This document shows positions 4,614 to 26,809 of a DNA stretch of 32,000 nucleotides, piece by piece. The translations under genes and the position numbers were made by a program. Source of the DNA: Candidatus Iainarchaeum sp. (GTDB lineage Archaea; Iainarchaeota; Iainarchaeia; Iainarchaeales; JAZDEL01); assembly GCA_043808785.1 (NCBI GenBank), contig JAZDEL010000009.1, forward strand, positions 1 through 32,000, in the 5' to 3' direction. Each line of letters opens with the position of its first letter. The stretch's first letter is position 1. The notes below the pieces were generated by a model that did no database searches, was not told where the DNA came from, and worked only from the letters and a program-made list of their open reading frames with translations.

Positions 4614-4871
4614 TTATACCACCGCCCTTTGTTTCCCCGATTCCGCAATTTTCCACTTGAACCACTCTCCCGCGGCGCAGGCGCCGTAAAGGTTCCGCGG
4701 TTTTCCCGCGCATAACCTGTACCTTATGCGCCTGATACCATACATATGGTTTGCTGAAACCGTGGGAAAACGGGGAAAATTCGTGCAGTTTGCCGAAACC
4801 ACTGAAAAATCAGGAAAAACGCCGTTAATGCGGGCTCGGCTTAAAATAACTTGTGTCCAGCGTTATTTCAG

Positions 4872-5384
4872 ATGGAACTCAAAATAGACCTTTCAAACAG
4901 GCGCGCGATTGCGGGAATAGTTGTCCTGCTCTGCGTTATGGCGCTTGTGCTTTACCTCCCGCCATTGCTGAACGAAACAAATCCCGGCGTGTGTTATGTG
5001 GGGGGCGTTTGCCAGCACGAGAAGCGCATAGAGGTGCTGAACCAGCTCGTGCCGTTCTTCATCCTCGGCGGCGTGGCGATAGGCGCGCTTGTGTTCTTTT
5101 TCATGACCTCCAAGCTCGAGGACAAGGGGAAGGAACTGAAAAAGGTCACTTCCGCGCTTGTGCAGTTCCTCGGAAAGGACGAGAAGGCAGTGGTGCAAAA
5201 AATTCTTGAAAATGGCGGAAAGGTTTACCAGTCCGAGGTTTCGCGCATCGAAACCGTGGGCAAGCTGAAAAGCCACCGCATACTCCAGCGCCTTGCGGAC
5301 CGCGGGGTAATTGAAATAGAAAAGCACGGGAAGACGAACATAATAAAGCTCGCGCCCGCGGTGCGCGAGGTTCTTGTGAAATAG
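4872..5384 (+). CDS. Membrane-anchored winged-helix transcriptional regulator (two TM helices plus a C-terminal wHTH)
   Basis: The track ORF starts at TTG 4851; the first ATG is at 4872, about 25 nt after the TATA-like ttaaaata (4840-4847). Two hydrophobic helices flank a loop with CYVGGVC. The C-terminal YQSEVSRIETVGKLKSHRILQRLADRGVIEIEKHGKTN is a typical wHTH. Confidence 0.65.
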   Translation: MELKIDLSNRRAIAGIVVLLCVMALVLYLPPLLNETNPGVCYVGGVCQHEKRIEVLNQLVPFFILGGVAIGALVFFFMTSKLEDKGKELKKVTSALVQFLGKDEKAVVQKILENGGKVYQSEVSRIETVGKLKSHRILQRLADRGVIEIEKHGKTNIIKLAPAVREVLVK

Positions 5385-5491
5385 GCGCGCGGATTCGTGC
5401 GGAATAGGCGCATACGGTAGCGTGCGAAGCGCATGCGAAATTGCCGCGCAGGCGGCGTGTGCGGGTTTCCCGCGATAAGCACACTTGCACC

Positions 5492-6496
5492 TTATTTTCC
5501 GTAAATCTTTTTAATCGCTTCCCCGAGGTATTCGGGCTGCGCTATGAAAACGTCCCTCTTCATGTAGCCGTGCCTCGTGAGGACGAGGCCCGTGTTTATG
5601 AGCCCCCTGTATATTTTTTTGCCGTATCCCAGTCCGCCCGCGAGCTTCTGCGCTTTCGCCCCGTGCGCCCCTTCGGAGCCTATGCGCAGGAGGATTTCCG
5701 CAAGGTCCGATGTTGCGCCCTCCCCGAACCTGCCGAGCCCGGCATCGAGCGCCATCCTGAAAACCCTGAGCGTGTAGCTGCCCTCTATTGCAAACCCGCG
5801 CACCTGCTTCTCCGTGATTCGCTTTTTCTCCAGAAGGCCGTTCAGGAAGTCGGCAGCCCCGGGCGGGTTCTCCGCCCTTATTTTGTCCATCGCCTGCTTA
5901 AGGGGGGACACTTCCTCCTTTTTTGCGGGCGCTTCTTTGGTTTCGGCATCCCGCCTGTTGCCGGTTTCCTTTTTCCCCTTCTTTTTCGGCTTTGCTGTGC
6001 GCCCCATCCTTGTTTCCGCGGGAAACCCGCGCAGTGACGCCTTCATGACTCTTGTGTCCCGCCGCCGCAGTTTTTTCAGGTAAATTTTTTCATAGAGCCT
6101 CCATTCGGGGTTGCCCGCAACGTCGAAACGCACGTAGCGGGATGAAAATGTTTCCTTGATTAGGCGCTTGGAAACAGGCAGGTGCCTCATGCGCAGGTAA
6201 TTTTCAAAGTGCTTGGGGAGTTCCGATTTCGCAATCGCCGCGAGCCTTGACGAGATTTTTGCGAACATCCCGCGCCCGGCAGCGGAATAGTTCCTGCTTT
6301 TCGCGCGGAAGTGCGCCTCCACAGCGGCATCGCCCATCGGCTTGCCTCCGCTGCTGCTCTGCAGGTTTGCCCCGCGCACCGCACTCCCGATAAATCTTTT
6401 CTTCGCCTCGAGGCGCCCGCGCATAACCCTTGCGAAATCGTTCGGAAACTTCGCCCTTCTCCCGAGGGGCTTCTTTGCCGCAATTGGCGCCGCCAT
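5492..6496 (-). CDS. Hypothetical protein: two globular regions joined by a Lys/Glu-rich linker
   Basis: The track ORF runs to 6643, but the first ATG (MAAPIAAKK...) is at 6496, about 25 nt downstream of a TATA-like gtttttattc on the minus strand. The composition is protein-like. No family recognised. Confidence 0.55.
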   Translation of the reverse strand: MAAPIAAKKPLGRRAKFPNDFARVMRGRLEAKKRFIGSAVRGANLQSSSGGKPMGDAAVEAHFRAKSRNYSAAGRGMFAKISSRLAAIAKSELPKHFENYLRMRHLPVSKRLIKETFSSRYVRFDVAGNPEWRLYEKIYLKKLRRRDTRVMKASLRGFPAETRMGRTAKPKKKGKKETGNRRDAETKEAPAKKEEVSPLKQAMDKIRAENPPGAADFLNGLLEKKRITEKQVRGFAIEGSYTLRVFRMALDAGLGRFGEGATSDLAEILLRIGSEGAHGAKAQKLAGGLGYGKKIYRGLINTGLVLTRHGYMKRDVFIAQPEYLGEAIKKIYGK

Positions 6497-6675
6497 AGCA
6501 TGAATACGCCGCGGCTGAATAAAAACATATGCCGAAAATGCGGCGTTCCGCCCCGCCTGGCGGTGCCGGCTTATCTGCGCGGTTTGCGCAAGAAAACCGA
6601 AAACCTGCGGCAGGTTTGCCGCGCGTGCGGAAACCGAAAACAAAAACGCACGCTACCGGGTTTGCCCGGTGCGAA

Positions 6676-6709
6676 CCCCAAAAACCCGCGCGGGTTTTTG
6701 TTTTTTGGG
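6676..6709. terminator. Palindromic hairpin with flanking A and T tracts, terminator-like and possibly bidirectional
   Basis: aaaaacccgcgcgggttttt is a perfect 20-nt palindrome (6680-6699), followed by gttttttggg. On the minus strand it gives a hairpin plus T5 downstream of the 6800..7057 gene. Confidence 0.5.
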
Positions 6710-6799
6710 TGCGCGCGAATTTGCATTTTGCCCGCGGGCAGCCTGCGGGAACCAAGCCCGAAAACCGCGCTTGCTTTTTGTTTGCGCGCGGTTGCGCCT

Positions 6800-7057
6800 T
6801 TATTCCCCGCCGAGGTTCCTCGACCTTATGCGCTCGTTCTCTATGTGCCTTATGCGCGACTGAAGCGCGGCAATCTTGCTTTTCTTGCCGTCAATCTCCT
6901 CGTCGAGCGATTCCGCCTCGCCCTCGGTGAACATGTTGCGCTTCCTCTTGAGCGCCATGCGCTTCTCGAGCGCAACCTTATCCCTTTCTATGCGGTCTAT
7001 TGCCGCCTTTATTTCCATTATTTCCGCTTTGTAATCGTCCCTATCCATAATATTCAC
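6800..7057 (-). CDS. Small coiled-coil protein (hypothetical)
   Basis: 85-aa ORF (GTG 7057, or ATG 7048) with a heptad-like charged sequence (EIMEIKAAIDRIERDKVALEKRMALKRK...). An AT-rich TATA-like box lies about 25-35 nt upstream on the minus strand. Confidence 0.5.
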   Translation of the reverse strand: MNIMDRDDYKAEIMEIKAAIDRIERDKVALEKRMALKRKRNMFTEGEAESLDEEIDGKKSKIAALQSRIRHIENERIRSRNLGGE

Positions 7058-7204
7058 CCCGTATTATGGGTAAATCAAACATTTTAATAATTCTGCAATT
7101 CCCGCGCAGGGCGGCGGGAACGCATAAAAACCCTTATAAACCGCCAAATTTGCGGGGTTCGGCGCACCGCCGGGCATTGCCGAAGGCGCCGGAAAAGCGC
7201 CGGC

Positions 7205-7219
7205 AAACCCTTATAAACC
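7205..7219 (+). promoter_or_regulatory. BRE/TATA-like box (aaacccttataaacc) in front of the RNase P RNA gene
   Basis: The TATA core ttataaac (7211-7218) is centred about 26 nt upstream of the predicted RNA 5' end at 7240. An identical 15-mer is repeated at 7128-7142. Confidence 0.55.
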
Positions 7220-7239
7220 CCCTTAACAGCAATATATAC

Positions 7240-7478
7240 GCAGGGAAGCGGGCAGGCAGCCAACGGTTCTCCGAAAGGATTCGAACTGAGGAAAGTCCGC
7301 CCATCCATTCCAAAATGACGCGCCCGAGAGGGCGTCCCACGGAACAGAAACGATACCCTTCATTGGGCTGAAACGCGCTGTGGGTGGTGGTGTCAAAACC
7401 ACCGGGATGCAAGGCTTCACGCCGCTTAGGCGAATGCTGCCGAAATTACAGAAGGCGGCTTATTGCCCGCAGCCCTGC
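7240..7478 (+). ncRNA. rnpB: RNase P RNA, compact (about 239 nt)
   Basis: CR-I GAGGAAAGUCCGCC (7288-7301). CR-V ACAGAAGGCGGCUUAU (7448-7463). P4 pairing AAG[U]CCGCC : GGCGGCUU includes the conserved bulged U. A CR-II-like GGGCUGAAACGCG is present. The ends close as P1 gcaggg (7240-7245) : ccctgc (7473-7478) and P2 gcgggca (7248-7254) : tgcccgc (7464-7470). Confidence 0.8.
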
Positions 7479-7658
7479 ACCTCAACTTTTAGGAGCGTGA
7501 GGCTTCGCCTTGCGCTCAGCCTCACTTCCCAAAAGTTGGCAAAACTTCTGGTATGTGGGCTGCCTTCGGCAGCCCGATAATTCGTGCTGCGTTTCGCCAC
7601 CTTTTTATATATCCTGCGATATTGGTTATTGTGCACGCTTTGTGTTGAGGTGGCTTGA

Positions 7659-8072
7659 ATGGCGGGTTCTGAAAGCATAGAAATCAGAGACGAATCTAAC
7701 CACCCTAGTATTGCCGGCAATGAGGGCATACTCGTTGCATGGAAGGGCAGGGGGTATCTGGGCTGCATTAGGTGGAAAGAAAAGGCAAACTGGAAAGGGG
7801 ACAAGACCTGGTGGCTTGTGCTGAACGGGGGAAAGGAAGTTTCAACGCAATTGCTAAGGGCGGTTCACGAGCATGCGAAAGAAAAGGGCATCAAATATAT
7901 GGCATTTGAATTACCCTGCCCCGAACTGAGGGGGTTCCTCAGGGGGGCGGGAATGAAGGGCGGATCCAAAGAAAGGGTGCTTTACAAGAAATTCTCGGTT
8001 GCGTCTGTGCGTTTTGAGCCCCCCGTGCGGAAAAGTTTATTTAGCGCATTCAAATTCAAAAAGCCAAAGTAA
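7659..8072 (+). CDS. Hypothetical small protein, possibly a degenerate GNAT-like fold
   Basis: 137-aa ORF. SD gaggtgg (7647-7653) lies 5 nt before the ATG. TATA-like tttatata at 7605-7612. The segment WWLVLNGGKEVSTQLLRAVHEHAKEKGIKYMAFEL resembles the acetyltransferase beta4-alpha3 region, but the motif is degenerate. Confidence 0.5.
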   Translation: MAGSESIEIRDESNHPSIAGNEGILVAWKGRGYLGCIRWKEKANWKGDKTWWLVLNGGKEVSTQLLRAVHEHAKEKGIKYMAFELPCPELRGFLRGAGMKGGSKERVLYKKFSVASVRFEPPVRKSLFSAFKFKKPK

Positions 8073-8111
8073 GGTAACCATTATATATCATTTATTGAAA
8101 TATTAATAGTT

Positions 8112-10703
8112 ATGCAAGCCCTTACGGACAAGCAGGTAAAGGCGAAGTTCAGGCCGAAATTCGTGAAAGAATACAAGAAGTTTTACCCCGTGCAGGCTCT
8201 GCACTCACTGGGCTTCGAGAGGCGCGAGTGCATGAAATGCCAGCGCGAATTCTGGAGCACGGATGCGGAAAGGCAGGCCTGCGGCGAGCCCGCGTGCGAG
8301 GGCGGATTTGGTTTTATCGGGAAGACGCCCGCGAAAAAGAAACTGAATTACATAGAGGCGTGGGAGGAGTTCGCGCGCGAGTTCAAAAAAATGGGCTACC
8401 TTGCAGTGCCGCGCAAGCCAGTGGTTGCGCGCTGGCGCAACGACGTGTACTGGACGGGCGCCTCGGTGTACGGGTTCCAGCCGTACGTTGTGAGCGGCGA
8501 AATAGAGCCGCCGAGCAACGCGGTTATAATTCCACAACTCAGTTTGCGTTTCAATGATGTGGATAACGTTGGCATAACAGGCTCGCACTACTCATGCTTC
8601 GACATGCTCGGCCAGCTGCGCTTCGAAAAGAAGGGGGATTACGCGCCCGGCGATTATTTGAAAGATTACCTCTCATGGCTCGAGAAAGGGATGGGAATCC
8701 CGCGCAACGCGCTCGTTCTGCACGAGGATTCCTGGGCGGGAGGGGGAACATTCGGCCCGAGCATGGAATTCTTCAGCGCAGGGCTTGAACTCGGCAACCA
8801 GGTTTACATGCAGTATTCCGCTAACGCGGACGGCGGTTACAGGGAACTCGACATAAAAGTTTTGGATATGGGGCAGGGGCATGAGAGAATACCGTGGTTC
8901 ACGCACGGCAAGAGTACAAGCTACGAAACCACTTTTCCGGACGTCGTGCACTATCTGCGGAAAGTTTCAGACCTGCGCGCCGACGAGGAACTGTTGCAAA
9001 AATTCCTGCCCTATTCCGCGTACCTGAATGTTGACGAGGTTGAAAATATAGCGCGTACATGGGGCTTTGTTGCGGGGAAAATAGGCATTTCTGTTGAGGA
9101 ACTGCGCGCGCGGCTTATGCCCATGCGCGACCTTTACGCGATTGCGGAGCATTCAAGGGCGGTTCTTGCCGCGCTGAACGACGGCGCGATGTTCAGCAAC
9201 ACGGGGGGAGGGTATAACATACGCACGCTTGCAAGGCGCATGTTCTCCCTTGCTGAGGAGCGGCGCTGGGATGTGGATTATTCAAAACTCCTCGAACTGC
9301 ACGCGCACTTCCTGCGCAACCTTTACCCGGAACTCGAGGAAAACCTGAAGGATGTGAATGAAATGCTCGCCTATGAACTGCAGAAGCACGGGCAGACGAG
9401 GTTCAAATCCAAGCAGGTTATCGAGGGGCTGATTGCGAGGAAGGAAAAAATCACGCCCGCGAAACTCGCGGAACTGTACGATTCGCAGGGAATAACGCCC
9501 GAACTCCTGCAGGGCTATGCAAAGGGCACGGAACTCGAGGTAAGCGTGCCCGACAATTTCTTCGCGCTTGTTGCGGAAAGGCACGCGGAAAAAAAGGAAG
9601 GTGCCGGCGAAAGTGATTCGGAGGACAAAAACAAAAAAACAAAAAAACCCGAAATCGCGGGCAAGGTTTTGGAGGGTTTGCCGGAAACCAAAAGGATGTA
9701 TTACGAGGATGCCTCGCTCCTCGAATTCGATGCTAATGTCCTTTACGCGCAGGGAAATGTTGTTGTTCTGGACCGCTCGGCATTTTACCCAACTTCGGGG
9801 GGGCAGGAGCACGACACGGGGGAAATAATGGGGGAGCGCGTGATTGATGTTGTTGCGCAGGGGGAGATGGTTTTGCACATCCTGCAGAACGGCAAAACCA
9901 AAATAAAAACGAAACAGCGGGTTAAGTGCGTGGTTGATGCCGCGCGCAGGAGGCAGTTAACACAGCACCACGACGGCACGCATGTGCTGAATTATGCCTG
10001 CCGCGAGGTTTTGGGCGCGCACTGCTGGCAGCACGGCTCTTATGTTGGCTTGGATAAGGCGAGGTTCGATGTCACGCATTACAGGCCGATAGATGATGCC
10101 GAGGCAAAAAAAATCGAGGAGGTGTGCAGCCGCATAATAAAGGAGCGCCTGCCGATAAAGCACGAGTTCCTTGCGCGCAATTTAGCGGAGGAAAAATACG
10201 GCATGCGCATTTACCAGGGAGGATACGTTCCGGGAAAGGTGCTGCGCATCCTCAGCATTGCGGATTTGGATATCGAGGCATGCGGCGGCACGCACGCAAA
10301 GAACACCGCCGAAATCGGGCAGTTCCGCATTCTCAACACCGCAAAAATCCAGGACGGGGTTATACGCATAACTTTCGTTTGCGGGAAAGCCGCGGAGAAG
10401 AGCGGGAGCGAGGCCGAAGGATTGCTTGCGGAAACCGCCGCAATTTTGGGCATCGAGCCTGCCGCTGTTCCCTCCGCATGCGAAAACCTTTTCGCGGCAT
10501 GGAAAAGGGCGAGGAAACTTGTGAAGGGCAAAAACACGGGAGCGCTTAGGGCGCTCGCGCTTCCGACGCCCGAAAAAAGGCATGGTTTGGGCACGGCAGA
10601 ACTGCTGCAGGCAGCCGCGCTCGCTTTCAGCACGCAGCCCGAGCACGTGCCGAAAACCGCAAAAAGGTTTTTGGGCGACCTGCGAAAGTGGAAGGCGGGG
10701 TGA
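8112..10703 (+). CDS. alaS: Alanyl-tRNA synthetase, archaeal type
   Basis: 863 aa. N-terminal archaeal AlaRS signature (GFERRECMKCQREFWS), class II core, editing domain (HxxxH ...THYRP; CGGTHAKNT). Includes a Lys-rich linker insert. Confidence 0.95.
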   Translation: MQALTDKQVKAKFRPKFVKEYKKFYPVQALHSLGFERRECMKCQREFWSTDAERQACGEPACEGGFGFIGKTPAKKKLNYIEAWEEFAREFKKMGYLAVPRKPVVARWRNDVYWTGASVYGFQPYVVSGEIEPPSNAVIIPQLSLRFNDVDNVGITGSHYSCFDMLGQLRFEKKGDYAPGDYLKDYLSWLEKGMGIPRNALVLHEDSWAGGGTFGPSMEFFSAGLELGNQVYMQYSANADGGYRELDIKVLDMGQGHERIPWFTHGKSTSYETTFPDVVHYLRKVSDLRADEELLQKFLPYSAYLNVDEVENIARTWGFVAGKIGISVEELRARLMPMRDLYAIAEHSRAVLAALNDGAMFSNTGGGYNIRTLARRMFSLAEERRWDVDYSKLLELHAHFLRNLYPELEENLKDVNEMLAYELQKHGQTRFKSKQVIEGLIARKEKITPAKLAELYDSQGITPELLQGYAKGTELEVSVPDNFFALVAERHAEKKEGAGESDSEDKNKKTKKPEIAGKVLEGLPETKRMYYEDASLLEFDANVLYAQGNVVVLDRSAFYPTSGGQEHDTGEIMGERVIDVVAQGEMVLHILQNGKTKIKTKQRVKCVVDAARRRQLTQHHDGTHVLNYACREVLGAHCWQHGSYVGLDKARFDVTHYRPIDDAEAKKIEEVCSRIIKERLPIKHEFLARNLAEEKYGMRIYQGGYVPGKVLRILSIADLDIEACGGTHAKNTAEIGQFRILNTAKIQDGVIRITFVCGKAAEKSGSEAEGLLAETAAILGIEPAAVPSACENLFAAWKRARKLVKGKNTGALRALALPTPEKRHGLGTAELLQAAALAFSTQPEHVPKTAKRFLGDLRKWKAG

Positions 10704-11371
10704 GCGCGTGGGAGTGCGCCGCGGAAACCGCGGAAAACCCGGAAACGTTGCGGGGTGTTGATTTGGGCATCTTCGGCGGAAAGCCCATACTCACAAAGAA
10801 GCGCGAGAAGGCGCTGGACGATTTCCGCGCGAACGCGGTTGCCGCGCTCGGGGAACTGAGGCGCGGGACAAAGGACGCGAATGTCCGCGAACTTTACGAC
10901 AGCATGATTTACAACATCGGAAGCACGCCCGTTGTATTCCACCCCCTGCGCAACCTGCGGGAAATGATTTACCGCGTGGGGAACATGGTTTTCGGCTCCG
11001 TTACGAAGGGCGAGAGCGTGGAGAGGATTGCGGTTGTGCAGAAGGGCGGCAGCAGCTATATTGTAAGGCGGCATTACATAAACATGCCCGCGGAGCACAT
11101 GTTTAGCGGAGACCGCCTGACAATCGACGGCATCTTCACGCTTGCGCACGAATATGCGCACTTCGGCAAGCCGCTGATTGCGGAGTTTGCCGCATCCCTG
11201 CGCATAACGCCCGATGTTGCCGAGGAACTGCTTGCCGACACGCTCTCGGCAAAACTCGCGGCAAGGATGGGTTTCCCGAAAAGCGAGGTTCTTGCGCACT
11301 TCGAGGGCAGGGATGTTGTTTATGGCCCATTCCCCTTCAGGAAATACCTCGCGCGCGCAATAGGTTTTTAA
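10688..11371 (+). CDS. HExxH-motif protein, putative Zn-metallopeptidase-like (hypothetical)
   Basis: 227-aa ORF whose GTG start overlaps the alaS stop by 16 nt; the start is uncertain. Contains FTLAHEYAHFG. The composition is protein-like, unlike the Arg-rich antisense ORF 10211..11299. Confidence 0.55.
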   Translation: MEGGVSAWECAAETAENPETLRGVDLGIFGGKPILTKKREKALDDFRANAVAALGELRRGTKDANVRELYDSMIYNIGSTPVVFHPLRNLREMIYRVGNMVFGSVTKGESVERIAVVQKGGSSYIVRRHYINMPAEHMFSGDRLTIDGIFTLAHEYAHFGKPLIAEFAASLRITPDVAEELLADTLSAKLAARMGFPKSEVLAHFEGRDVVYGPFPFRKYLARAIGF

Positions 11372-11400: not shown

Positions 11401-12552
11401 ATGCCGCATTTTAACGTGCAGAAAGCAAGGCTGGTTCTCGGGGACGGTTCCTCTTTTTCGGGCATTTCGTTCGGTGCAAATGCTTCTTCCGCGGGCGAGG
11501 TTGTATTCAACACGGGCATGTGCGGATATGAGGATTCGCTTTCAGACCCCTCATATTCGGGGCAGATACTGGTTTTCACATACCCCTTGATAGGTAACTA
11601 CGGGGTAAGGGCGGAGGCACAGGGAAAGTTTGAAATGCGCCTTGCGGGAAAGGGGAACGGCGGCTTCCCGCCATACAAGCTCGACAGGAAATTCTTCATA
11701 AATAATTTCGAGTCCGAGCGCGTGCAGGCTGCGGGGGTTATAGTGGCGTCATATTCTGGCGCCTTTTCGCACCACTCCGCTGAAAAATCCCTCGGCGCGT
11801 GGCTTGAACAGCACGGCGTTCCCGCGATAACCGGCATAGACACGCGCGCGCTGACAAAAAGATTGCGCGAGTGCGGAACGATGCCGGGAAAAATTGAAAT
11901 AGAGGGCGTAAGTGATGTGCGGATATGTGACCCGAATAAAACCAACCTTGTCGCGGGGGTCGGCATAAAGGAGCCAGTGGTTTACGAGAGCGGGAAGCGC
12001 AGCCCCGCGCATGTTGTTGTCGCGGACTGCGGCGTTAAGAACAACATCCTGCGCATGCTGCTTGCCAGAAATCTCAAAGTTACGCGCGTGCCGTGGAATT
12101 ACGATTTCAATTCAATCGAATGCGATGCAATCGTGCTCTCGAACGGTCCGGGCGACCCAAAGATGCTTAATGAAACAATCTCTCACGTGCGCGCCGCGCT
12201 TGCAAAGGAAACCCCGATTTTCGGAATCTGCCTCGGCAACCAGCTGCTTGCGCTTGCAGCGGGCGCGGACACATATAAACTCAAATACGGCCACAGGTCG
12301 CAGAACCAGCCCGTACTTTTGCGGGGCACAAAGAAATGCTTCATAACCTCCCAGAACCACGGTTACGCGGTTAATGAAAAAACCCTGCCCGCGGGCTGGG
12401 AATCATGGTTCACAAATCTGAATGACGGAACGAACGAGGGCATAAGGCACGCCAAAAAGCCCTTCATGTCGGTTCAGTTCCATCCCGAAGCAACTCCCGG
12501 GCCTGTGGATACGGCGTTCCTTTTCGGCGAATTTTTGGGGGCTTTGAAATGA
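11401..12552 (+). CDS. carA: Carbamoyl-phosphate synthase small (glutaminase) subunit
   Basis: 383 aa. Class I amidotransferase triad context (GICLGNQLL, QNHGYAV, SVQFHPEA). Confidence 0.95.
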   Translation: MPHFNVQKARLVLGDGSSFSGISFGANASSAGEVVFNTGMCGYEDSLSDPSYSGQILVFTYPLIGNYGVRAEAQGKFEMRLAGKGNGGFPPYKLDRKFFINNFESERVQAAGVIVASYSGAFSHHSAEKSLGAWLEQHGVPAITGIDTRALTKRLRECGTMPGKIEIEGVSDVRICDPNKTNLVAGVGIKEPVVYESGKRSPAHVVVADCGVKNNILRMLLARNLKVTRVPWNYDFNSIECDAIVLSNGPGDPKMLNETISHVRAALAKETPIFGICLGNQLLALAAGADTYKLKYGHRSQNQPVLLRGTKKCFITSQNHGYAVNEKTLPAGWESWFTNLNDGTNEGIRHAKKPFMSVQFHPEATPGPVDTAFLFGEFLGALK

Positions 12553-13781
12553 GTTTCGCACAGGAAATGTACCCTCTCCCGAAACTATTTAAGCGCGGGC
12601 TGAACTTAATATTCATGGTGCCGCATTTGGATGCCGTAAAATCCGTTCATTTCTGGGATTTGCCCGAAACAACGAGGTTCGTTTTGGACCGAAATTTTTG
12701 TGCCGAACTTTTTGATAAGGCGGCCGGGGGAAGCCTCCGCTCGCTGGCTTCAAAATTGGGCGTTTCTTACCCGCGCGCCTGCCATCTGAGGCGGCCTTTG
12801 TATTCAATCCCTAAAGGCGTCCTGATGTGCCTGATAATTTTGAGTGCCATTGAAAAGGCGGATGTCGAAAATAAAATTATTGAAATAAAAACCCGCTCAG
12901 GAGGCGGTTCCAAAGTTAAATTTCCCATTAACGGCAACAGGGCAATAGCCTCGCTTGTAGGGCACGTTTTCGGTGATGGGTGCATTTATTCGAAAAAACG
13001 GCAGTTCGAATACGGCAATACCAAACCCGAACTTCTGGAATCCGTAATGAAATTGGTCGGCGATGTTTTGTGTGCGGAGCCAATAAGGATTGCCGAAACA
13101 AGGCTTGTTTATTCGGCAATTGTGGGGGATATTTTGCTGTTGTTTGGCGCACCGAAAGCGCCTAAACTGAATTCAGATTCTCCCGTGCCGGAATGGATTA
13201 TGGCCGGCCCGAATGAATTCAAGGCGGCATTTCTCGGGGCTTTGTTTGACGATGACGGTTCAGTTATGTATTCGGAAAAATATGCCGCAAAAGGCATTAA
13301 CCTGTACCAAACAAGGCACGAAAAAAATCTGGATTGCTTGATGCGCCTGATGAGCCAGGTAAAAACTATGCTGTCTGATTTCGGCATACTTGCGGGCAAG
13401 CCTTCCGTAAGCAGGAGTTATTCCAAGCCGGATGGCGCCCATATTGTCGCATATCTGAACGTTACCGACATTGAAAGCATGCGGAAATTTAATGAATCGA
13501 TAGGGTTTGCCCACATTGAAAAAAAAGTGAAATTGGAAAAGATTCTCTCCAGAAAAATAATTTACAGCAAAACCCGCGAAGCCGTGCTGTCGAAAGAAAT
13601 CCTCGGATTTTTGGCGGTGCGCGGGGCATCAACCGCAAAAGTTTCGGAGGCCCTGTCACTCGATAAATCCAAGGCTTTAAAGAAACTTCTCAGGCTTGAA
13701 TCAAGAGGGCTTGTCAGGAGGGCGGGAAGGGCCGCCCCGAACAGGTCTTTTATCTGGCAAACGAGGGAGGTGACATGCTGA
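12549..13781 (+). CDS. Free-standing double-motif LAGLIDADG homing-endonuclease-like protein with an N-terminal HTH-like segment and a C-terminal wHTH
   Basis: 410 aa. Motif 1 is LVGHVFGDG (aa 136-144, nt 12954-12980). Motif 2 is LGALFDDDG (aa 229-237, nt 13233-13259). They are about 93 aa apart and both keep the acidic residue before the final Gly. The C-terminal STAKVSEALSLDKSKALKKLLRLESRGLVRR is wHTH-like. The ATG overlaps the carA stop (ATGA). The stop lies 1 nt before the carB TTG start. Confidence 0.8.
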   Translation: MSFAQEMYPLPKLFKRGLNLIFMVPHLDAVKSVHFWDLPETTRFVLDRNFCAELFDKAAGGSLRSLASKLGVSYPRACHLRRPLYSIPKGVLMCLIILSAIEKADVENKIIEIKTRSGGGSKVKFPINGNRAIASLVGHVFGDGCIYSKKRQFEYGNTKPELLESVMKLVGDVLCAEPIRIAETRLVYSAIVGDILLLFGAPKAPKLNSDSPVPEWIMAGPNEFKAAFLGALFDDDGSVMYSEKYAAKGINLYQTRHEKNLDCLMRLMSQVKTMLSDFGILAGKPSVSRSYSKPDGAHIVAYLNVTDIESMRKFNESIGFAHIEKKVKLEKILSRKIIYSKTREAVLSKEILGFLAVRGASTAKVSEALSLDKSKALKKLLRLESRGLVRRAGRAAPNRSFIWQTREVTC

Positions 13782-13782
13782 T

Positions 13783-16700
13783 TTGAAAACAAAAAACCAC
13801 CCAAAGCCGAAGAAGGTTCTCGTGCTGGGTTCGGGCGGGCTGCAGATAGGGCAGGCAGGCGAAAGCAACTTGTGGTTTCATTGAAACTATAATTGCCGCC
13901 AATTCGACTACTCAGGCAGCCAGGCGATAAAGGCGCTGCGCGAGGAGGGCATAAGCACCGTGCTCATCAACCCCAACATCGCCACAGTGCAGACAGGGAA
14001 GGGGTTCGCAGATAAGGTTTATTTCCTCCCCCTTACGCCCGAATTTGTCGAAAGGGTGATTGCTCGGGAGAAGCCTGGCGGCATACTACTCTCCTTCGGC
14101 GGGCAAACCGCATTGAACTGCGGCCTCGAACTCGAACGCAGGGGCGTTCTGCGCAGGCACGGGGTAAGGGTATTAGGCACGCCTGTGAAGGCAATTGCAC
14201 TCACGGAGGACAGGGAAAAATTCAACAGCGAACTCGGGAGGATAGGGGTTAAGGTGCCGAGCAGCAGCGCTGTAACCACTGTGCCCTCGGCCCTTAGCGC
14301 GGCGGAAAAATTGGGCTACCCCGTGATTGTTCGCGCCGCATTCGCATTGGGGGGCAGGGGTTCGGGTTTTGCGAAAAACAGGGAGGAATTAAGGGGCATC
14401 GCGGGGCGCGCGTTCACGCACTCGAAGCAGATTCTTGTGGAGGAATGCCTGAAGGGCTGGAAGGAAATCGAATACGAGGTTGTGAGGGATGTGCACGGCA
14501 ACTGCATAACAGTTTGCAACATGGAGAACTTCGACCCTTTGGGAATACATACGGGGGAGAGCATTGTTGTTGCTCCCTCGCAGACGCTGAACAACAGCGA
14601 ATACCACATGCTGCGTGAAATCTCGATACGCACGATAAGGCATTTCGGAATAATCGGGGAATGCAACATACAGTTCGCTTTGGACCCGAAAAGCGAGGAA
14701 TACAGGGTTATCGAGGTTAACGCGCGCCTCTCGCGCTCGAGCGCGCTCGCTTCAAAAGCCACTGGTTATCCGCTCGCGTTCGTTGCCGCAAAACTCGCGC
14801 TCGGCTATTCCCTTGCCGAACTTGAAAACAAGGTCACAAGGACAACGAAGGCATGCTTCGAGCCCGCGCTGGATTATATTGTCGTGAAAATTCCCCGCTG
14901 GGATTTGCAGAAGTTCAGGCGCGTTTCAAGGCGCATAGGCACCGAGATGAAGAGCATGGGGGAAGTGATGGCGATAGGCAGGACTTTCGAGGAGGCGATG
15001 CAAAAAGCCATAAGGATGCTTAACACAGGCATGAACGGCCTTGTGTGCAACAGCGTGCATTTCCTGAAACTGCGCAGGAGCATTGCCCACCCCACTGATA
15101 AGAGGATTTTCGCGGTTATAGAGTCTCTTGAGAAGGGTTACGGCATCGACAGGATACACGCGCTGAGCGGCATTGACAGATGGTTCCTCCAGCGCCTTGA
15201 GAATGTGGTTGCGCTGAAGAAGGAAATGGTTAAGGGAAACTGGACAGCGCAGGCAATTCCCGCCGAAGTGCTGCTGCGCTGCAAACAGCAGGGGTTTTCG
15301 GATAAGCAGATTGCAATTTTGCTCCGTGGCGGCGGGGATGCGGGGGCGGGCGCAGACGGCGCGAAAATGCGCGGCTCGCCGGGCGGGGCGCAGGAGGCCG
15401 CGGTGCGCGCGAGAAGGCACGCCCTCGGCCTGCATCCTTTCGCAAGGCAGATAGACACGCTTGCAGCGGAATTCCCGGCGCGCACGAATTACCTTTACCT
15501 CACTTACAACGCAACCGAGGATGATGTAAAATTCCCGCGCGGGAAGAAGGCGCTTGTGCTCGGCAGCGGCGCATACAGCATAGGCTCCAGCGTCGAGTTC
15601 GACTGGTGCTGTGTCGGCGCTGTTAACGCGCTCAAGCGCGCAGGGTTCGGCACGATAATGCTCAACTGCAACCCTGAAACCGTCTCAACGGATTATGATG
15701 TGTGCGACAGGCTCTATTTCGAGGAAATCAGCCTTGAGGCAGTTCTTGAAATTTACGGAAAGGAAAAGCCGCGGGGGGTTGTTGTTTCAGCAGGCGGGCA
15801 GATACCTAACGGCCTTGTGCCGAAGCTCGCGCCCGCGGGAGTAAAAATTTTCGGAACGCCCGCGGAAAGCATAGACCGCGCGGAGGATAGGCATAAGTTT
15901 TCCGCCCTTCTCGATTCCCTTGGGATTGCCCAGCCGGAATGGCGCCAACTCACAACGGAAAAGCAGGCGCTTGAATTTGCAGCGCGCGTTAACTATCCGG
16001 TGCTTGTAAGGCCGAGTTACGTGCTCAGCGGTTCCGCAATGCGCGTTGCTTTCTCCCCCGCGGAACTCTCCTCATACCTGCGGGAAGCCACTTCGGTTTC
16101 TGCCGAGTACCCTGTTGTGATAAGCAAGTTCATCCTCGGCGCAAGGGAGGTTGAAATTGATGCTGTTGCCTCGAAGGGGGAAATGGCGGTTTGGGCGATA
16201 ACCGAGCACGTGGAGAACGCGGGCGTTCACTCAGGGGATGCCACTATGGTTCTCCCTCCCCAGCGCACAAACCTCGAAACCGTGCGCAGGATAAAGCATA
16301 TTGCGAGGCGGCTTGCCTCCTCGCTCCGCATTTCAGGGCCTTTCAATATGCAGTTCCTTGCAAAGGACAACAATGTGCTCGTGATAGAGATGAACCTGCG
16401 CGCCTCGCGCTCGTTCCCGTTTGTTTCGAAGGTTTCCGGCACGGACTTTATCGATGCCGCGGTTTCGGCAATGCTCGGCGCGAAAGCGAAGCACGCAAAT
16501 TCCTCCTCACTCGGGCCTGGCAAGGCGCCGCACACCAACTCATCCTCACTCGAGCTCGACCATGTGGGCGTGAAAGTTCCGCAGTTCTCCTTCTCAAGGC
16601 TGCACGGCGCAGACCCTAAACTCGGGGTTGAAATGGCTTCCACGGGAGAAGTTGCGTGCATAGGCCCTGATTTGGAGGATGCGTTCCTCAAGGCAATGCT

Positions 16701-17130
16701 TTCAGCGGGCTACTCGATGCCCAAAAAGAACATGCTTGTCAGCATTTCAGGGGACAGGAACAGGGAAAAACTGCTTGACGCGGTGAAGGCAGCGGCAGTT
16801 GCAATGCGCCTTAACATATTCGCGACGGAAAATACCGCGCGCTTCCTGCGCGCGAACGGCGTGAAATGCAGGCGCCTGTTCAAGGCTCACGAAAACAAGA
16901 AGCCGAATGTGCTCGGCTACCTGCACAGCGGCAGGCTTGATTTCGCGATATGCGTCCCCGACCCGCAGGTTGCCGCGGAAATGGGCGGCGCATACCTCCT
17001 CAGGCGCGCTGCCGTCGATTATTCAGTCCCCCTTATAACTGATGCCGAGGTCGCAAGGCAGTTCCTGAAGGCGATTTCCGCAAAGAAGCCCGAGGAGCTT
17101 GACATAAGGCCGTGGCAGGAGTATTTCTGA
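13783..17130 (+). CDS. carB: Carbamoyl-phosphate synthase large subunit, interrupted. Exon 1 is 13783..13863 and exon 2 is 13903..17130; the 39-nt insert 13864..13902 must be removed.
   Basis: TTG 13783 is preceded by a strong SD gggaggtga (13765-13773). Exon 1 encodes (M)KTKNHPKPKKVLVLGSGGLQIGQAGE and exon 2 starts FDYSGSQAIKALREEG.... Joined, they rebuild the conserved CarB N-terminus. The track ORF (13960..17130) is an N-terminally truncated call. Both ATP-grasp halves and the MGS-like C-terminus are present. Confidence 0.85.
13864..13902 (+). other. 39-nt intervening sequence in carB with an in-frame TGA and a BHB/BHL-like fold; candidate mRNA mini-intron
   Basis: Sequence agcaacttgtggtttcattgaaactataattgccgccaa, with TGA at 13882-13884. 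Fold: GGCG (13858-61) : CGCC (13897-900), AAA bulge (13862-64), GCAA : TTGC (13865-68 / 13893-96), then a 10-bp stem 13870-79 : 13883-92. Equivalent boundaries are 13862..13900 and 13863..13901. Confidence 0.5.
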
Positions 17131-25823: not shown

Positions 25824-26723
25824 TTACACCTTAACCCCCAACAGCTTCAGCATCACAGCCTTCTGCACGTGCATCCTGTTCTCGGCCTCATCGAAGACAA
25901 TGCTTGCCTTGCTGTCAAGCACCTCATCAGCAACCTCGCATCCGCGGTGCGCGGGCAGGCAGTGCATGAACAATGCATCCTTCTTCGCGTGTGCCATCAA
26001 ATTTGCATCAACCATGTAACCCTTAAAATCCCGCAGGCGCTTCTCCTTCTCCCCCTCCTGCCCCATGCTGACCCAGGTGTCGGTGTAAACAACATCCGCG
26101 CCCTTAACCGCGTCTTCGGGTTTGTTGTAGAGCTGCAGCGCACCGAATTTCTTTCCCACATCAACCGCGCTTTTGTGGGGTTCGTAACCCTTCGGGGTTG
26201 CAACAGCAACCTTCATACCCATTTTCGAGCCGCCGATTATGAGCGAGTTGCAAACATTGTTCCCGTCCCCCACAAATGCCAGTTTCAAACCCTCCAGTTT
26301 TCCTTTTTTTTCCTTTATTGTCATCAAATCCGCCAAAATTTGGCACGGGTGATAAAGGTCGCAAAGCGCATTTATGACGGGAACCCTGCTGGCTTCCGCC
26401 ATTGCCTTGATATCCGCATGCTTATACACGCGCGCCATGATAATATCGCAGTACCTGTCCAGGCACCTTATTTCATCCTGAATTGCGCCCAATGTGAAGT
26501 TGCTCGCCCTCCAGTCCAGAAAAATCGCGTGCCCGCCCAATTGCGTCATTCCCGCCTCGAAACTAACCCTTGTACGTGTGCTGGTTTTCTGGAACAGCAT
26601 GCACAGGCTCTTGTTTTTGAGCGCGTCCGCATAATCCCCCTGCGAACCCTTTACTTTTATTGCGTTGTCTATAACCTCGCCTATAAGTTCGGGTTTCCAG
26701 TCCAAAAGAGTTACAAGATGCAT
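25824..26723 (-). CDS. argF: Ornithine carbamoyltransferase
   Basis: STRTRVSFE, HPCQILAD, DTWVSMGQE, HCLPAHRG. The track ORF extends to 26801, but Met27 (ATG 26723, MHLVTLLDW...) gives the standard length of 299 aa. Confidence 0.9.
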   Translation of the reverse strand: MHLVTLLDWKPELIGEVIDNAIKVKGSQGDYADALKNKSLCMLFQKTSTRTRVSFEAGMTQLGGHAIFLDWRASNFTLGAIQDEIRCLDRYCDIIMARVYKHADIKAMAEASRVPVINALCDLYHPCQILADLMTIKEKKGKLEGLKLAFVGDGNNVCNSLIIGGSKMGMKVAVATPKGYEPHKSAVDVGKKFGALQLYNKPEDAVKGADVVYTDTWVSMGQEGEKEKRLRDFKGYMVDANLMAHAKKDALFMHCLPAHRGCEVADEVLDSKASIVFDEAENRMHVQKAVMLKLLGVKV

Positions 26724-26809
26724 CCTCAAACCTCCTCGAGCCCACACTAAACAGCAACCAAAATTATTTAATAATGGTTCATGCCGGTTTTGGTTCGGCA
26801 ATAAAAAGC

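Follow-up and report, generated by a model that had tools for sequence, protein, structure and literature searches.

The carB gene, for the core metabolic enzyme carbamoyl-phosphate synthase, carries a 39-nt insert in the window, by which we mean the whole 32,000-nt stretch of DNA analysed. From its sequence and fold we infer that the insert is probably an mRNA intron of the relaxed HBh' form, spliced by EndA and RtcB and mobilised through DNA cleavage in collaborative homing. A sequence-only reading of this DNA had proposed a protein-coding intron, and that proposal is backed here by 22 distinct inserts at the same site, a common fold, covariation, non-triplet lengths and purifying selection on the gene. 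The proteins of the window correspond to NCBI entries MFH1225268-76, which belong to a metagenome-assembled genome named 'Candidatus Diapherotrites archaeon'.

The whole carB gene spans 13783-17130 on the plus strand, as do all features described below, and is split after GQAGE. Exon 1 (13783..13863) has a TTG start and aligns with the N-terminus of the intact protein P0125 (90% identical), and exon 2 (13903..17130) has 1075 codons and ends with TGA. The insert between them (13864..13902; AGCAACTTGTGGTTTCATTGAAACTATAATTGCCGCCAA) scored 68.3 bits with the covariance model R1. Translation of 13783-14100 agreed with the earlier claim that these 39 nt interrupt the frame with a TGA at 13882..13884. 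The break falls within the near-invariant GxxGE-FDYSG segment, and joining the exons in translation restores the same conserved CarB N-terminal motif as in intact P0125. As the sequence-only reading had also stated, the paralogous E|F site in the second half of CarB (gag ttc, 15595-15600) is uninterrupted, and automated gene calling yields a truncated product: the mechanical ORF list contains carB only as 13960-17130 (1056 aa), beginning at GTG 13960, the first in-frame start of exon 2 in the window, 19 codons in. Recoding of the TGA was ruled out, as carA, carB, LeuRS and AlaRS in the window all use TGA as an ordinary stop.

The ratio dN/dS was 0.084 between exon 2 of the window and that of the intron-bearing allele in locus L122, and 0.08-0.10 (about 0.09) at dS > 1.5 between intron-bearing alleles, indicating that exon 2 is under strong purifying selection. 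At 13 loci exon 2 formed an unbroken ORF (1038-1075 codons), exon 1 was conserved among intron-bearing loci, and carB had no lesion besides the insert. Because dN/dS is low, exon 2 is complete in these 13 loci and the window also encodes a carbamoyltransferase, the comparison indicates that the interrupted carB is a functional gene and not a pseudogene. An Rfam search of the 32-kb window found an archaeal RNase P RNA, which marks the DNA as archaeal, no other Rfam family and no tRNA; genes for EndA and RtcB were likewise not found in the window.

Refolding reproduced each part of the hairpin that had been read from the sequence. The last exon nucleotides before AA form the 5' strand of a central 4-bp helix, H (GGCG, 13858..13861), which pairs with H' (CGCC, 13897..13900). 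The AAA bulge (13862..13864) was unpaired in every minimum free energy (MFE) fold and would contain the predicted 5' cut at 13863/13864. The intron hairpin (13865..13896) begins with the helix h' (13865-68 : 13893-96, GCAA:UUGC) and continues through a 1-nt bulge at C69 into a 10-bp stem (13870-79 : 13883-92) with a 3-nt loop (13880-82, AUU). The predicted 3' cut, 13902/13903, lies in the trinucleotide A-A-U (13901..13903), which has no adjacent closing helix. Taken alone, 13858-13903 had an MFE of -18.7 kcal/mol, with 86% of the ensemble in this structure and z = -5.18, and 1 of 200 shuffled sequences folded as well; in an 86-nt context, z was just -1.1.

BHB introns are cut between the second and third bulge residues (PMC2738675). 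The relaxed BHB geometry proposed earlier agrees with this rule, both predicted cuts lying two nucleotides beyond the 3' end of a central-helix strand. With the cut after bulge nucleotide 2, exon 1 would end at a Glu codon and the junction GGCGAA|UUCGAC would be in frame. In the strict hBHBh' form the second bulge is closed by an outer helix h, but here N-A-U follows H' with no adjacent helix. Since no adjacent outer exon-exon helix is present, the motif is, as judged from its predicted pairing, of the relaxed HBh' form and not the strict one. The earlier statement that there is no outer exon-exon helix therefore holds next to the 3' site, but RNAalifold offered a distal exon-exon pairing of 5 bp (AUCGG with UUCGA), with an asymmetric loop of 6-7 unpaired nt between it and the central helix. 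This pairing involves only coding-constrained positions, shows no covariation and has one mismatch in the window sequence. A generic HBh' descriptor was not specific, giving 1536 structural candidates in the window, among them about 28 'ORF-extending' ones put down to chance; among possible further split genes in the window, only carB has homology support.

The carB comparison across related genomes, which the sequence-only reading had suggested as a check, revealed both intron-bearing and intron-less relatives. Among the 120 best CarB relatives, 10 are N-truncated exactly at this site, and about 10% of related carB genes carry the intron. The E|F insert was present in all 8 fetched contigs and in 15 metagenome contigs, and two more insert loci were reached through endonuclease homology alone. 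Inserts of this type occur in more than 20 independent assemblies (NCBI, ENA, JGI and Logan), and the carriers comprise independent DPANN assemblies and soil ammonia-oxidising Thaumarchaeota. The 22 distinct inserts lie at exactly the same E|F boundary and are 20-43 nt long, with 16 of the 22 not multiples of 3 (lengths mod 3: 6/10/6); an in-frame stop is present in 21 of the 22, against 10.3 expected from shuffles. As controls, 70 bacterial carB loci were taken from a contig scan with the pattern CAGGC N{18,48} TTYGAY..., and at all 70 the insert was absent, the model R1 matching only through 30 exon nucleotides; the matches listed were all 64 nt. The bacterial genes had matched the scan pattern via the upstream GCAGGC of 'GAGP'. 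In the intron-less archaeal locus L121, R1 also matched only through the 30 exon nucleotides, with no insert, and the intron-less L144 gave no R1 match below the cutoff of E = 1.

The family shares one fold, in which GGCG at the end of the exon pairs over 4 bp with CGYC at the 3' end of the intron, followed by a 3-nt bulge and a stacked inner helix. The structure ((((...((((..)))))))) was the unconstrained MFE fold of all 20 distinct inserts that match the pattern, and RNAalifold independently predicted H, the bulge and h'. At 15 loci the search pattern itself specified the GGCG and CGYC strands; it did not do so for the 8 protein-derived and 2 endonuclease-derived loci. Across the 22 sequences, 99.4% of cells were paired and 5 pairs had double-sided changes, values reached in 0 of 500 shuffles, while controls slid out of register were 27-60% paired. 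H was paired in 100% of the 22 sequences and occurs also as GGCG:CGUC, GGCG:CGCU and the compensatory GCCG:CGGC. The latter, found in L147, exchanges a G:C for a C:G pair: the usual exon codon GGC (Gly) occurs with CGCC, and GCC (Ala) with CGGC, so that a change in the exon codon is matched across the central helix. The inner helix h' has 4-11 bp in every member, and three to four of its pairs carry many double-sided changes (5, 14 and 11 at individual pairs; again 0 of 500 shuffles reached the observed values). The bulge is AAA in the family and AGA in L145, unpaired in all MFE folds, and N-A-U stands 3' of H' in 22/22 members. The compensatory changes that the earlier reading had named as a further check were thus found in both H and h'.

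A free-standing gene directly upstream of carB (12549..13781, 410 aa) matches Pfam LAGLIDADG_3 (E = 4.8e-11), and NCBI names its product 'LAGLIDADG family homing endonuclease'. Neither this gene, nor mobility of the element, nor occurrence outside DPANN (in Thaumarchaeota) had featured in the sequence-only reading. The protein has an N-terminal helical domain, a double LAGLIDADG core and a C-terminal MarR-type winged helix. Both motifs lie in one chain (LVGHVFGDG from residue 136 and FLGALFDDDGS from residue 228), and the catalytic Asp is kept in 31/31 homologues in the first and 30/31 in the second. Its AF2 model (pLDDT 90.1) and Foldseek comparison agree with the alpha-beta-beta-alpha-beta-beta-alpha core fold. 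Foldseek matched the model at E = 1e-8 to 1e-6 to the endonuclease domains of TliVMA, PI-PkoII and PI-SceI and to I-Tsp061I, and among LAGLIDADG folds also to WhiA and the bI3 maturase; a sequence search of the PDB gave weak winged-helix matches only. Motifs and model together identify the product as a double-motif LAGLIDADG homing endonuclease with predicted cleavage activity. Its wider family comprises 664 representatives at 50% identity. One distant relative (P0276, 28% identity) lies upstream of alaS in L148, and alaS was considered as a second example and rejected, being one uninterrupted frame.

The ATG of the endonuclease ORF overlaps the TGA of carA (ATGA), which encodes the glutamine amidotransferase small subunit (11401..12552; Pfam CPSase_sm_chain and GATase); in the intron-less L121, an ATGA overlap links carA straight to carB. 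The endonuclease ORF ends about 82 nt before the intron, and the intron itself contains no ORF. In the window, L123, L124, L125 (a half-copy), L130, L145 and L147, an intron-bearing carB is closely preceded by an endonuclease gene, so that every homologue with a known context adjoins an intron-bearing carB. Remnants of 33-58 aa persist in L129, L133 and L139, some endonuclease-less intron loci retain just the last codons, several DPANN alleles carry the intron but no endonuclease, and the ammonia-oxidiser alleles have the intron and no trace of the endonuclease.

Close relatives may lack both parts. Neither endonuclease nor intron is present in L121, whose CarB is 90% identical to that of the window, or in L144, whose CarB is 99% identical to that of L130. 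Sporadic occurrence of the endonuclease among close relatives, together with degenerate copies, is the pattern of a homing cycle, and a CarB tree of 124 tips requires no fewer than 12 gains or losses. Across the cassette and intron, L130 and L128 match except at 1 of 142 nt; beyond, they diverge by about 8%, forming an identity gradient centred on the cassette. When L130, L128 and L144 were compared, a breakpoint appeared in L130 about 220 nt into exon 2, where informative sites cease to resemble the donor and come to resemble the backbone (17:6 versus 8:28, p ~1e-4), which may mark a co-conversion tract of roughly 200 nt at this one locus, although L130 is a metagenome assembly and a chimeric assembly of two strains would mimic such a mosaic. 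In comparisons of the window with L121 and L122, identity near the intron was similar and informative sites were mixed. Overall, the genomic pattern suggests that the neighbouring endonuclease gene probably spreads the intron.

In the proposed mechanism, the exon-1 end GGCG of the pre-mRNA would pair with the intron 3' end CGCC as the central 4-bp helix, three nucleotides (AA|A) would bulge out, and the remaining intron would stack on this helix as a hairpin. EndA would cut at 13863|13864 and 13902|13903, in each case two nucleotides past the 3' end of a helix strand, and RtcB would ligate the exons to GGCGAA|UUCGAC, restoring full-length CarB; on unspliced RNA, translation would stop at the intron stop codon. 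Introns of this class are cut by EndA to 2',3'-cyclic phosphate and 5'-OH ends and ligated by RtcB, often with release of a circular intron. An EndA of strict specificity would not be expected to cut here, because no exon-exon helix next to the 3' site closes a bulge around it. In DPANN, loop-bearing EndAs are common, and Thaumarchaeota have an (alpha-beta)2 EndA (PMC5829648). At the DNA level, the intron and the free-standing LAGLIDADG gene would form a composite mobile element. The endonuclease would make a site-specific double-strand cut at the highly conserved E|F site of carB alleles that lack the intron, and repair from the intron-bearing allele would transfer the intron together with exon 1 and, often, the endonuclease gene. 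As the intron breaks the target site, its carrier would be protected, an arrangement called collaborative homing, and later decay of the endonuclease gene would leave intron-only alleles. Going further, it is about an even question whether the LAGLIDADG gene, the carried carB exon 1 and the 20-43 nt hairpin intron constitute a selfish element that has spread through DPANN carB in this way and crossed into or from ammonia-oxidising Thaumarchaeota. On the same reading, the mini-intron would be mainly an immunity device that breaks the endonuclease target, proposed to cost the host nothing because the tRNA-splicing machinery excises it from the mRNA.

One alternative, which we regard as unlikely, accepts the splicing but not the LAGLIDADG protein as mobiliser: the protein would be a domesticated DNA-binding protein (WhiA- or maturase-like) or would home elsewhere, for example at the carA-carB junction, and the patchiness would reflect vertical inheritance with many precise losses. 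The Foldseek matches to WhiA and bI3 maturase, the endonuclease-less alleles of ammonia oxidisers and several DPANN, and intron sequence types that broadly follow CarB clades would all fit this view. Domesticated proteins of the WhiA type, however, lack the catalytic acidic LAGLIDADG motifs, whereas both are kept in 30-31 of the 31 homologues here. Each endonuclease of known context adjoins an intron-bearing carB even though only about a tenth of related carB genes have the intron, and 'intron-only' loci hold endonuclease remnants. The cassette-centred gradient and breakpoint at L130 (a possibly chimeric assembly) also speak against it, and the number of state changes would demand many exact deletions.

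The remaining alternatives dispense with splicing. Programmed translational bypassing, of the T4 gene 60 or mitochondrial byp type, would have the ribosome skip the insert. The carB insert resembles the short, stop-containing gap of gene 60, where a stable hairpin lies near the take-off site, and the central helix would draw the two coding ends together. We nevertheless consider bypassing highly improbable, since it requires matching take-off and landing codons: the take-off codon is GAA or GAG (Glu) and the codon before TTC is CAA, CCA, CTA or TTA. The gap length also ranges over 20-43 nt, and exon end and gap end covary as the two strands of a helix in exact BHB register. That same covariation would be unexplained if CarB were made as two polypeptides (an N-terminal peptide of 27-33 aa and a restarted large chain) or if the truncated protein sufficed, a possibility suggested by alleles with an intron start codon in frame with exon 2 (P0196 MGRPFDYSG and P0190 MVVKPLDRLFDYSG). 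Restart positions vary, being GTG 13960 in the window and MREEG or MVNPN in others, and the break lies inside the near-invariant segment; this explanation is scarcely credible. An assembly artefact or decaying pseudogene might be suspected of a metagenome-assembled genome in which ORF callers report a truncated gene, but like inserts in so many independent assemblies, a conserved exon 1, exon 2 intact in 13 loci at dN/dS of about 0.09 and the absence of other lesions make the probability close to negligible.

The earlier statement that protein-coding archaeal introns are essentially limited to cbf5 was borne out by papers of 2020 and 2025, which cite only cbf5 and one 5'-UTR case, as has essentially been the state of knowledge for over 20 years, and we found no description of an archaeal carB intron or a LAGLIDADG-carB link in the literature. 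If spliced as proposed, the carB intron would be a second example, this one widespread across two archaeal superphyla and in a gene of central metabolism, and would show that the tRNA-splicing machinery serves generally for mRNA splicing in Archaea. Its link to a homing endonuclease suggests how such introns could originate and move, and would, if true, give them a route to arise de novo. To our knowledge, collaborative homing is known only from phage group I introns, so that it would be extended to another intron chemistry and another domain. The wider endonuclease family (664 representatives) may flag more cases in other conserved genes. Current annotation either reports intron-bearing carB genes as truncated proteins or misses them, and pyrimidine and arginine synthesis may therefore be mistaken for defective when the metabolism of DPANN and some ammonia oxidisers is reconstructed. 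Relatives occur in Ca. Nitrosocosmicus, a group with cultured members, which makes the prediction directly testable.

Like the carB intron, the cbf5 pre-mRNA intron of Crenarchaeota is short, contains no ORF and lies in a protein-coding gene; it mostly has an 'unconventional' relaxed BHB with predicted cuts after the second bulge residue, shows patchy gain and loss, and needs a broad-specificity splicing endonuclease (Yokobori 2009, PMC2738675). The carB intron differs in residing in a metabolic-enzyme gene of DPANN and ammonia-oxidising Thaumarchaeota and in having a linked homing endonuclease gene and signs of recombinational spread. Splicing of cbf5 was demonstrated with cDNA and in vitro cleavage, whereas that of carB is predicted from sequence. 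The cbf5 intron is reportedly also treated by Watanabe 2002 and Yoshinari 2006. The BHB intron of Haloferax HVO_1309 is likewise an mRNA substrate of the splicing endonuclease rather than a tRNA or rRNA one, but it lies in a 5' UTR (PMC7714728), whereas the carB intron breaks the reading frame at a catalytic-core motif.

In size and in having one well-formed bulge with central and inner helices, the carB intron resembles tRNA mini-introns at non-canonical positions, whose relaxed HBh' forms need an (alpha-beta)2, epsilon2 or loop-bearing EndA (PMC5829648). It differs from them in its mRNA host, where coding fixes the exon half to GGCGAA or GCCGAA. The relaxed HBh' tRNA mini-introns are said to be covered by Marck & Grosjean 2003. 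The archaeal rRNA and tRNA BHB introns associated with I-DmoI, I-PorI and I-Tsp061I, the last a structural match of the carB-linked endonuclease model, share both the intron chemistry and the endonuclease superfamily. They differ in having the endonuclease ORF inside a long intron of a stable-RNA gene; at carB the ORF precedes exon 1 of a protein gene, and the intron consists of a hairpin alone. That arrangement recalls collaborative homing of phage group I introns. There too, a conserved gene holds an ORF-less intron placed within the presumed target, with the endonuclease gene next to the intron rather than inside it; both are inherited together, and some alleles lack the endonuclease or are empty. 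In contrast to the phage case, the carB intron would be protein-spliced (EndA/RtcB type, 20-43 nt) rather than a self-splicing ribozyme, its hosts are archaeal, and its putative target site would be cut by a LAGLIDADG enzyme with winged-helix additions.

The window is archaeal: it carries an archaeal RNase P RNA, and NCBI lists its proteins under a 'Candidatus Diapherotrites archaeon' MAG. On translation, carB was readable from TTG 13783 up to 13863 (exon 1), continued into an insert of 13 codons including one TGA (13864-13902), and then stayed open without a break through 17130 (exon 2), which bears out the split proposed in the sequence-only reading. The mechanical ORF list recovered only 13960-17130 for this gene. 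The paralogous site in the second CarB half (gag ttc, 15595-15600) was unbroken, again as that reading had described. Recoding of the TGA was ruled out because TGA is the ordinary stop of carA, carB, LeuRS and AlaRS in the window.

The predicted fold of 13858-13903 matched the hairpin described from inspection: GGCG:CGCC is followed by a bulge of AAA, the helix GCAA:UUGC, a bulged C and a stem of 10 bp capped by the loop AUU. Its energy was -18.7 kcal/mol (z = -5.2), and it made up 86% of the ensemble. In bulge-helix-bulge (BHB) substrates, the cut falls between residues 2 and 3 of the 3-nt bulge that lies directly 3′ of either strand of the 4-bp central helix (PMC2738675). Here, on the forward strand, the central helix pairs GGCG at the exon end with CGCC at the intron 3′ end, and the predicted cuts, marked by slashes, lie in the 5′ bulge A62-A63/A64 (13862-13864) and in the trinucleotide following CGCC, A901-A902/U903 (13901-13903). 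Applied to this hairpin, the rule excises exactly 13864-13902 and yields GGCGAA/UUCGAC. The inner helix h′ was present and no outer exon-exon helix adjoined the 3′ site in the predicted fold, so the motif is of the relaxed HBh′ rather than the strict hBHBh′ form. RNAalifold suggested that the exons also pair distally over 5 bp, AUCGG with UUCGA, beyond an asymmetric loop; this pairing is confined to coding-constrained positions and contains a mismatch in the window's own sequence. A generic scan gave a single further candidate whose outer helix is all GC, a strong hairpin at 5387-5440 (+), with a GCGC helix and an 8-bp stem, between ORFs 4851-5384 and 5441-6037; it had no homology support and probably represents an intergenic or terminator structure.

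A full-length search with the spliced CarB returned a 90% identical protein with an intact N-terminus (P0125), and the called proteins of 10 of the 120 best CarB relatives began just past the Glu/Phe (E/F) site, for example MGRPFDYSG and MVVKPLDRLFDYSG. The contigs of these N-truncated relatives all had an insert separating exon 1 from exon 2, of 39 nt in L122 and L125, 33 nt in L123 and L126, and 34 nt in L124, L127 and L128. When metagenomes were scanned with a pattern derived from these loci, 15 contigs were obtained, and all 15 were carB with a 23-43 nt insert at the E/F boundary. Two more inserts were found through endonuclease homology alone, one of 20 nt in L145 (bulge AGA, central helix GGCG:CGCU) and one of 22 nt in L147 (exon GCCGAA, central helix GCCG:CGGC). 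The length was not a multiple of three in 16 of the 22 distinct inserts. An in-frame stop in the exon-1 frame occurred in 21 of 22, versus 10.3 expected from shuffles (P ~7e-7 for the intron-family alignment, uncorrected for relatedness), an excess that suggests selection to end translation of unspliced RNA. The NCBI Woesearchaeota assembly GCA_016185755.1 has no called gene over the 3.2-kb carB of L145 (6233-9440, 20-nt intron), a case of intron-bearing carB genes being silently missing from annotations. Several loci (L124 at 3306-3340; L135 and L138 in the stretch 5′ of exon 1) lack an in-frame canonical start codon (ATG, GTG or TTG) for exon 1 at the expected position, and L124 offers only ATT or a late TTG.

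The common architecture was recovered by unconstrained folding in 20 of 20 distinct pattern-matching inserts. GGCG and CGYC were built into the search pattern for L129-L143; the window, L122-L128, L145 and L147 were obtained free of that constraint. In the 22-sequence alignment 99.4% of cells were paired, double-sided changes occurred in five of eight pairs, and none of 500 shuffles attained any of the five measures; slid-register controls reached a pairing of only 27-60%. In L147, the exon codon GGC (Gly) is replaced by GCC (Ala) and the intron CGCC by CGGC, so that the central helix is kept by compensation. A covariance model derived from these aligned sequences scored every intron-bearing locus at 48.7-75.6 bits; for 70 bacterial carB loci and the intron-less L121 it gave only 30-nt matches within exon sequence, at 15-31 bits. 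It detected no match in the intron-less archaeal allele L144 below a cutoff of E = 1 and no second intron copy in the window. L121 and L144 are the intron-less alleles nearest to the intron-bearing ones, and their junction codons are GGA GAG/TTC GAT (2249-2260) and GGA GAA/TTC GAT TAC AGC (1521-1541), respectively. GGC GAA or GGC GAG stood at the junction in 21 of 22 distinct intron-bearing alleles, L147 having GCC GAA. This difference could reflect the pairing requirement of the intron or avoidance of the endonuclease target.

Complete exon-2 ORFs (1038-1075 codons) were present in 13 loci, and dN/dS among intron-bearing alleles was 0.08-0.10 (with synonymous sites near saturation). A consumer of carbamoyl phosphate, an aspartate/ornithine carbamoyltransferase, is encoded at 25824-26801 of the window. 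That the insert is an assembly artefact or carB a pseudogene is not tenable. Skipping of the insert by ribosomal bypass and production of CarB as a split protein are disfavoured. A protein-coding intron, as the sequence-only reading had it, is best supported: EndA would excise the intron from the mRNA and RtcB would join the exons.

That interpretation should be widened to take in a composite mobile element. The ORF that separates carA from carB exon 1 (12549-13781; MFH1225271) encodes a 410-aa LAGLIDADG protein (Pfam LAGLIDADG_3) with two motifs, LVGHVFGDG and FLGALFDDDGS. Its AlphaFold model (pLDDT 90) resembled the TliVMA, PI-PkoII and PI-SceI endonuclease domains as well as I-Tsp061I, which is encoded by an archaeal intron, and structure matching also identified a C-terminal MarR-type winged helix. 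The family is small and DPANN-labelled (33 word-indexed matches), keeps both catalytic motifs, and had 20 relatives at E <= 1e-30 and 664 at E <= 1e-3 (50%-identity representatives) in 1.84 billion clusters. Every homologue with readable context, even at 36% identity, lay directly 5′ of an intron-bearing carB (the window, L123, L124/L134/L140, L125 with a half copy, L130, L145/L146 and L147), the sole exception being a 28% identical relative beside an intact alaS. The latter, P0276, occupies 5001-6131 of the 769-kb contig L148, directly 5′ of uninterrupted alaS (6133-8478); it and the wider family of 664 representatives may be free-standing endonucleases targeting other conserved genes. A duplicated carB exon 1 opens the endonuclease ORF in L123 (2538-2620), P0271 and P0267, and the endonuclease is thus flanked by exon-1 direct repeats. 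Some endonuclease ORFs run on in frame across the exon 1 that follows and end at the stop of the intron; P0265 and P0270 are also among the proteins with duplication or read-through. These arrangements point to recurrent recombination at this position.

L121 shares the synteny carA-carB-LeuRS-ArgRS with the window and its CarB is 90% identical, and it has neither endonuclease nor intron; its carB ATG overlaps the carA TGA, exactly the arrangement that the window shows for the endonuclease ATG. L144 also has neither, and yet its CarB shares 99% identity with the CarB of L130, a locus that carries the two together. Intron-only loci keep the last codons of the endonuclease and its Shine-Dalgarno sequence (..KEVxx*, GGAGGTG) or C-terminal remnants of 33-58 aa, so that loss of the endonuclease was secondary. 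Between L130 and L128, 1 of 142 nt differed in a block reaching from the 3′ end of the endonuclease gene through exon 1 and the intron to nucleotide 20 of exon 2, versus ~8% beyond this block. Exon 2 of L130 was L128-like for ~220 nt (17:6 informative sites) and then L144-like (8:28; Fisher p ~1e-4). The switch may be the signature of a co-conversion tract, with chimeric assembly as an alternative. In a 124-tip CarB tree, 14 intron-bearing tips required at least 12 state changes. That the endonuclease has no role in intron mobility is disfavoured; the preferred reading is a carB intron that probably spreads with a free-standing endonuclease of putative carB specificity.

Five soil contigs (L131, L135, L137, L138 and L143) encoded CarB 53-63% identical to the DPANN set, with RpoK and Thi4 among the neighbouring genes, and flanking genes of L137 clustered at >=90% identity with Ca. 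Nitrosocosmicus sp. proteins; the intron therefore also occurs in ammonia-oxidising Thaumarchaeota. The thaumarchaeal introns measured 23-34 nt, and no endonuclease or remnant was visible at their loci. L137 (HXT85192-97) is labelled 'Verrucomicrobiae bacterium', its PurD, FolD, Thi4 and GT2 being >=90% identical to Ca. Nitrosocosmicus contigs, and is probably a mis-binned thaumarchaeal contig.

Elsewhere in the window, an archaeal RNase P RNA (RF00373, 107.7 bits; 7244-7474, +) spans positions 1-288 of the model with just 231 nt and is so a shortened form. A 227-aa ORF without a Pfam match (10688-11371, +) overlaps the end of alaS; its counterpart in L121 (325-933) likewise lies just 5′ of carA.

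The split carB is real. Its anatomy and recurrence, the covariation, the selection on the gene, the linkage to the endonuclease and the polymorphism are shown directly; EndA cleavage, RtcB ligation and the endonuclease target are inferred. We found no published account of an intron in carB or of its association with an endonuclease. In the reviews and primary literature up to 2025, cbf5 is the only spliced archaeal protein-coding gene cited, along with a 5′-UTR BHB in Haloferax HVO_1309. Cleavage of relaxed BHB motifs requires EndAs of the (alpha-beta)2, epsilon2 or loop-bearing types, and such enzymes are reported in TACK and DPANN lineages. 'Collaborative homing', in which a free-standing endonuclease is combined with an ORF-less intron, has been described for phage group I introns only.
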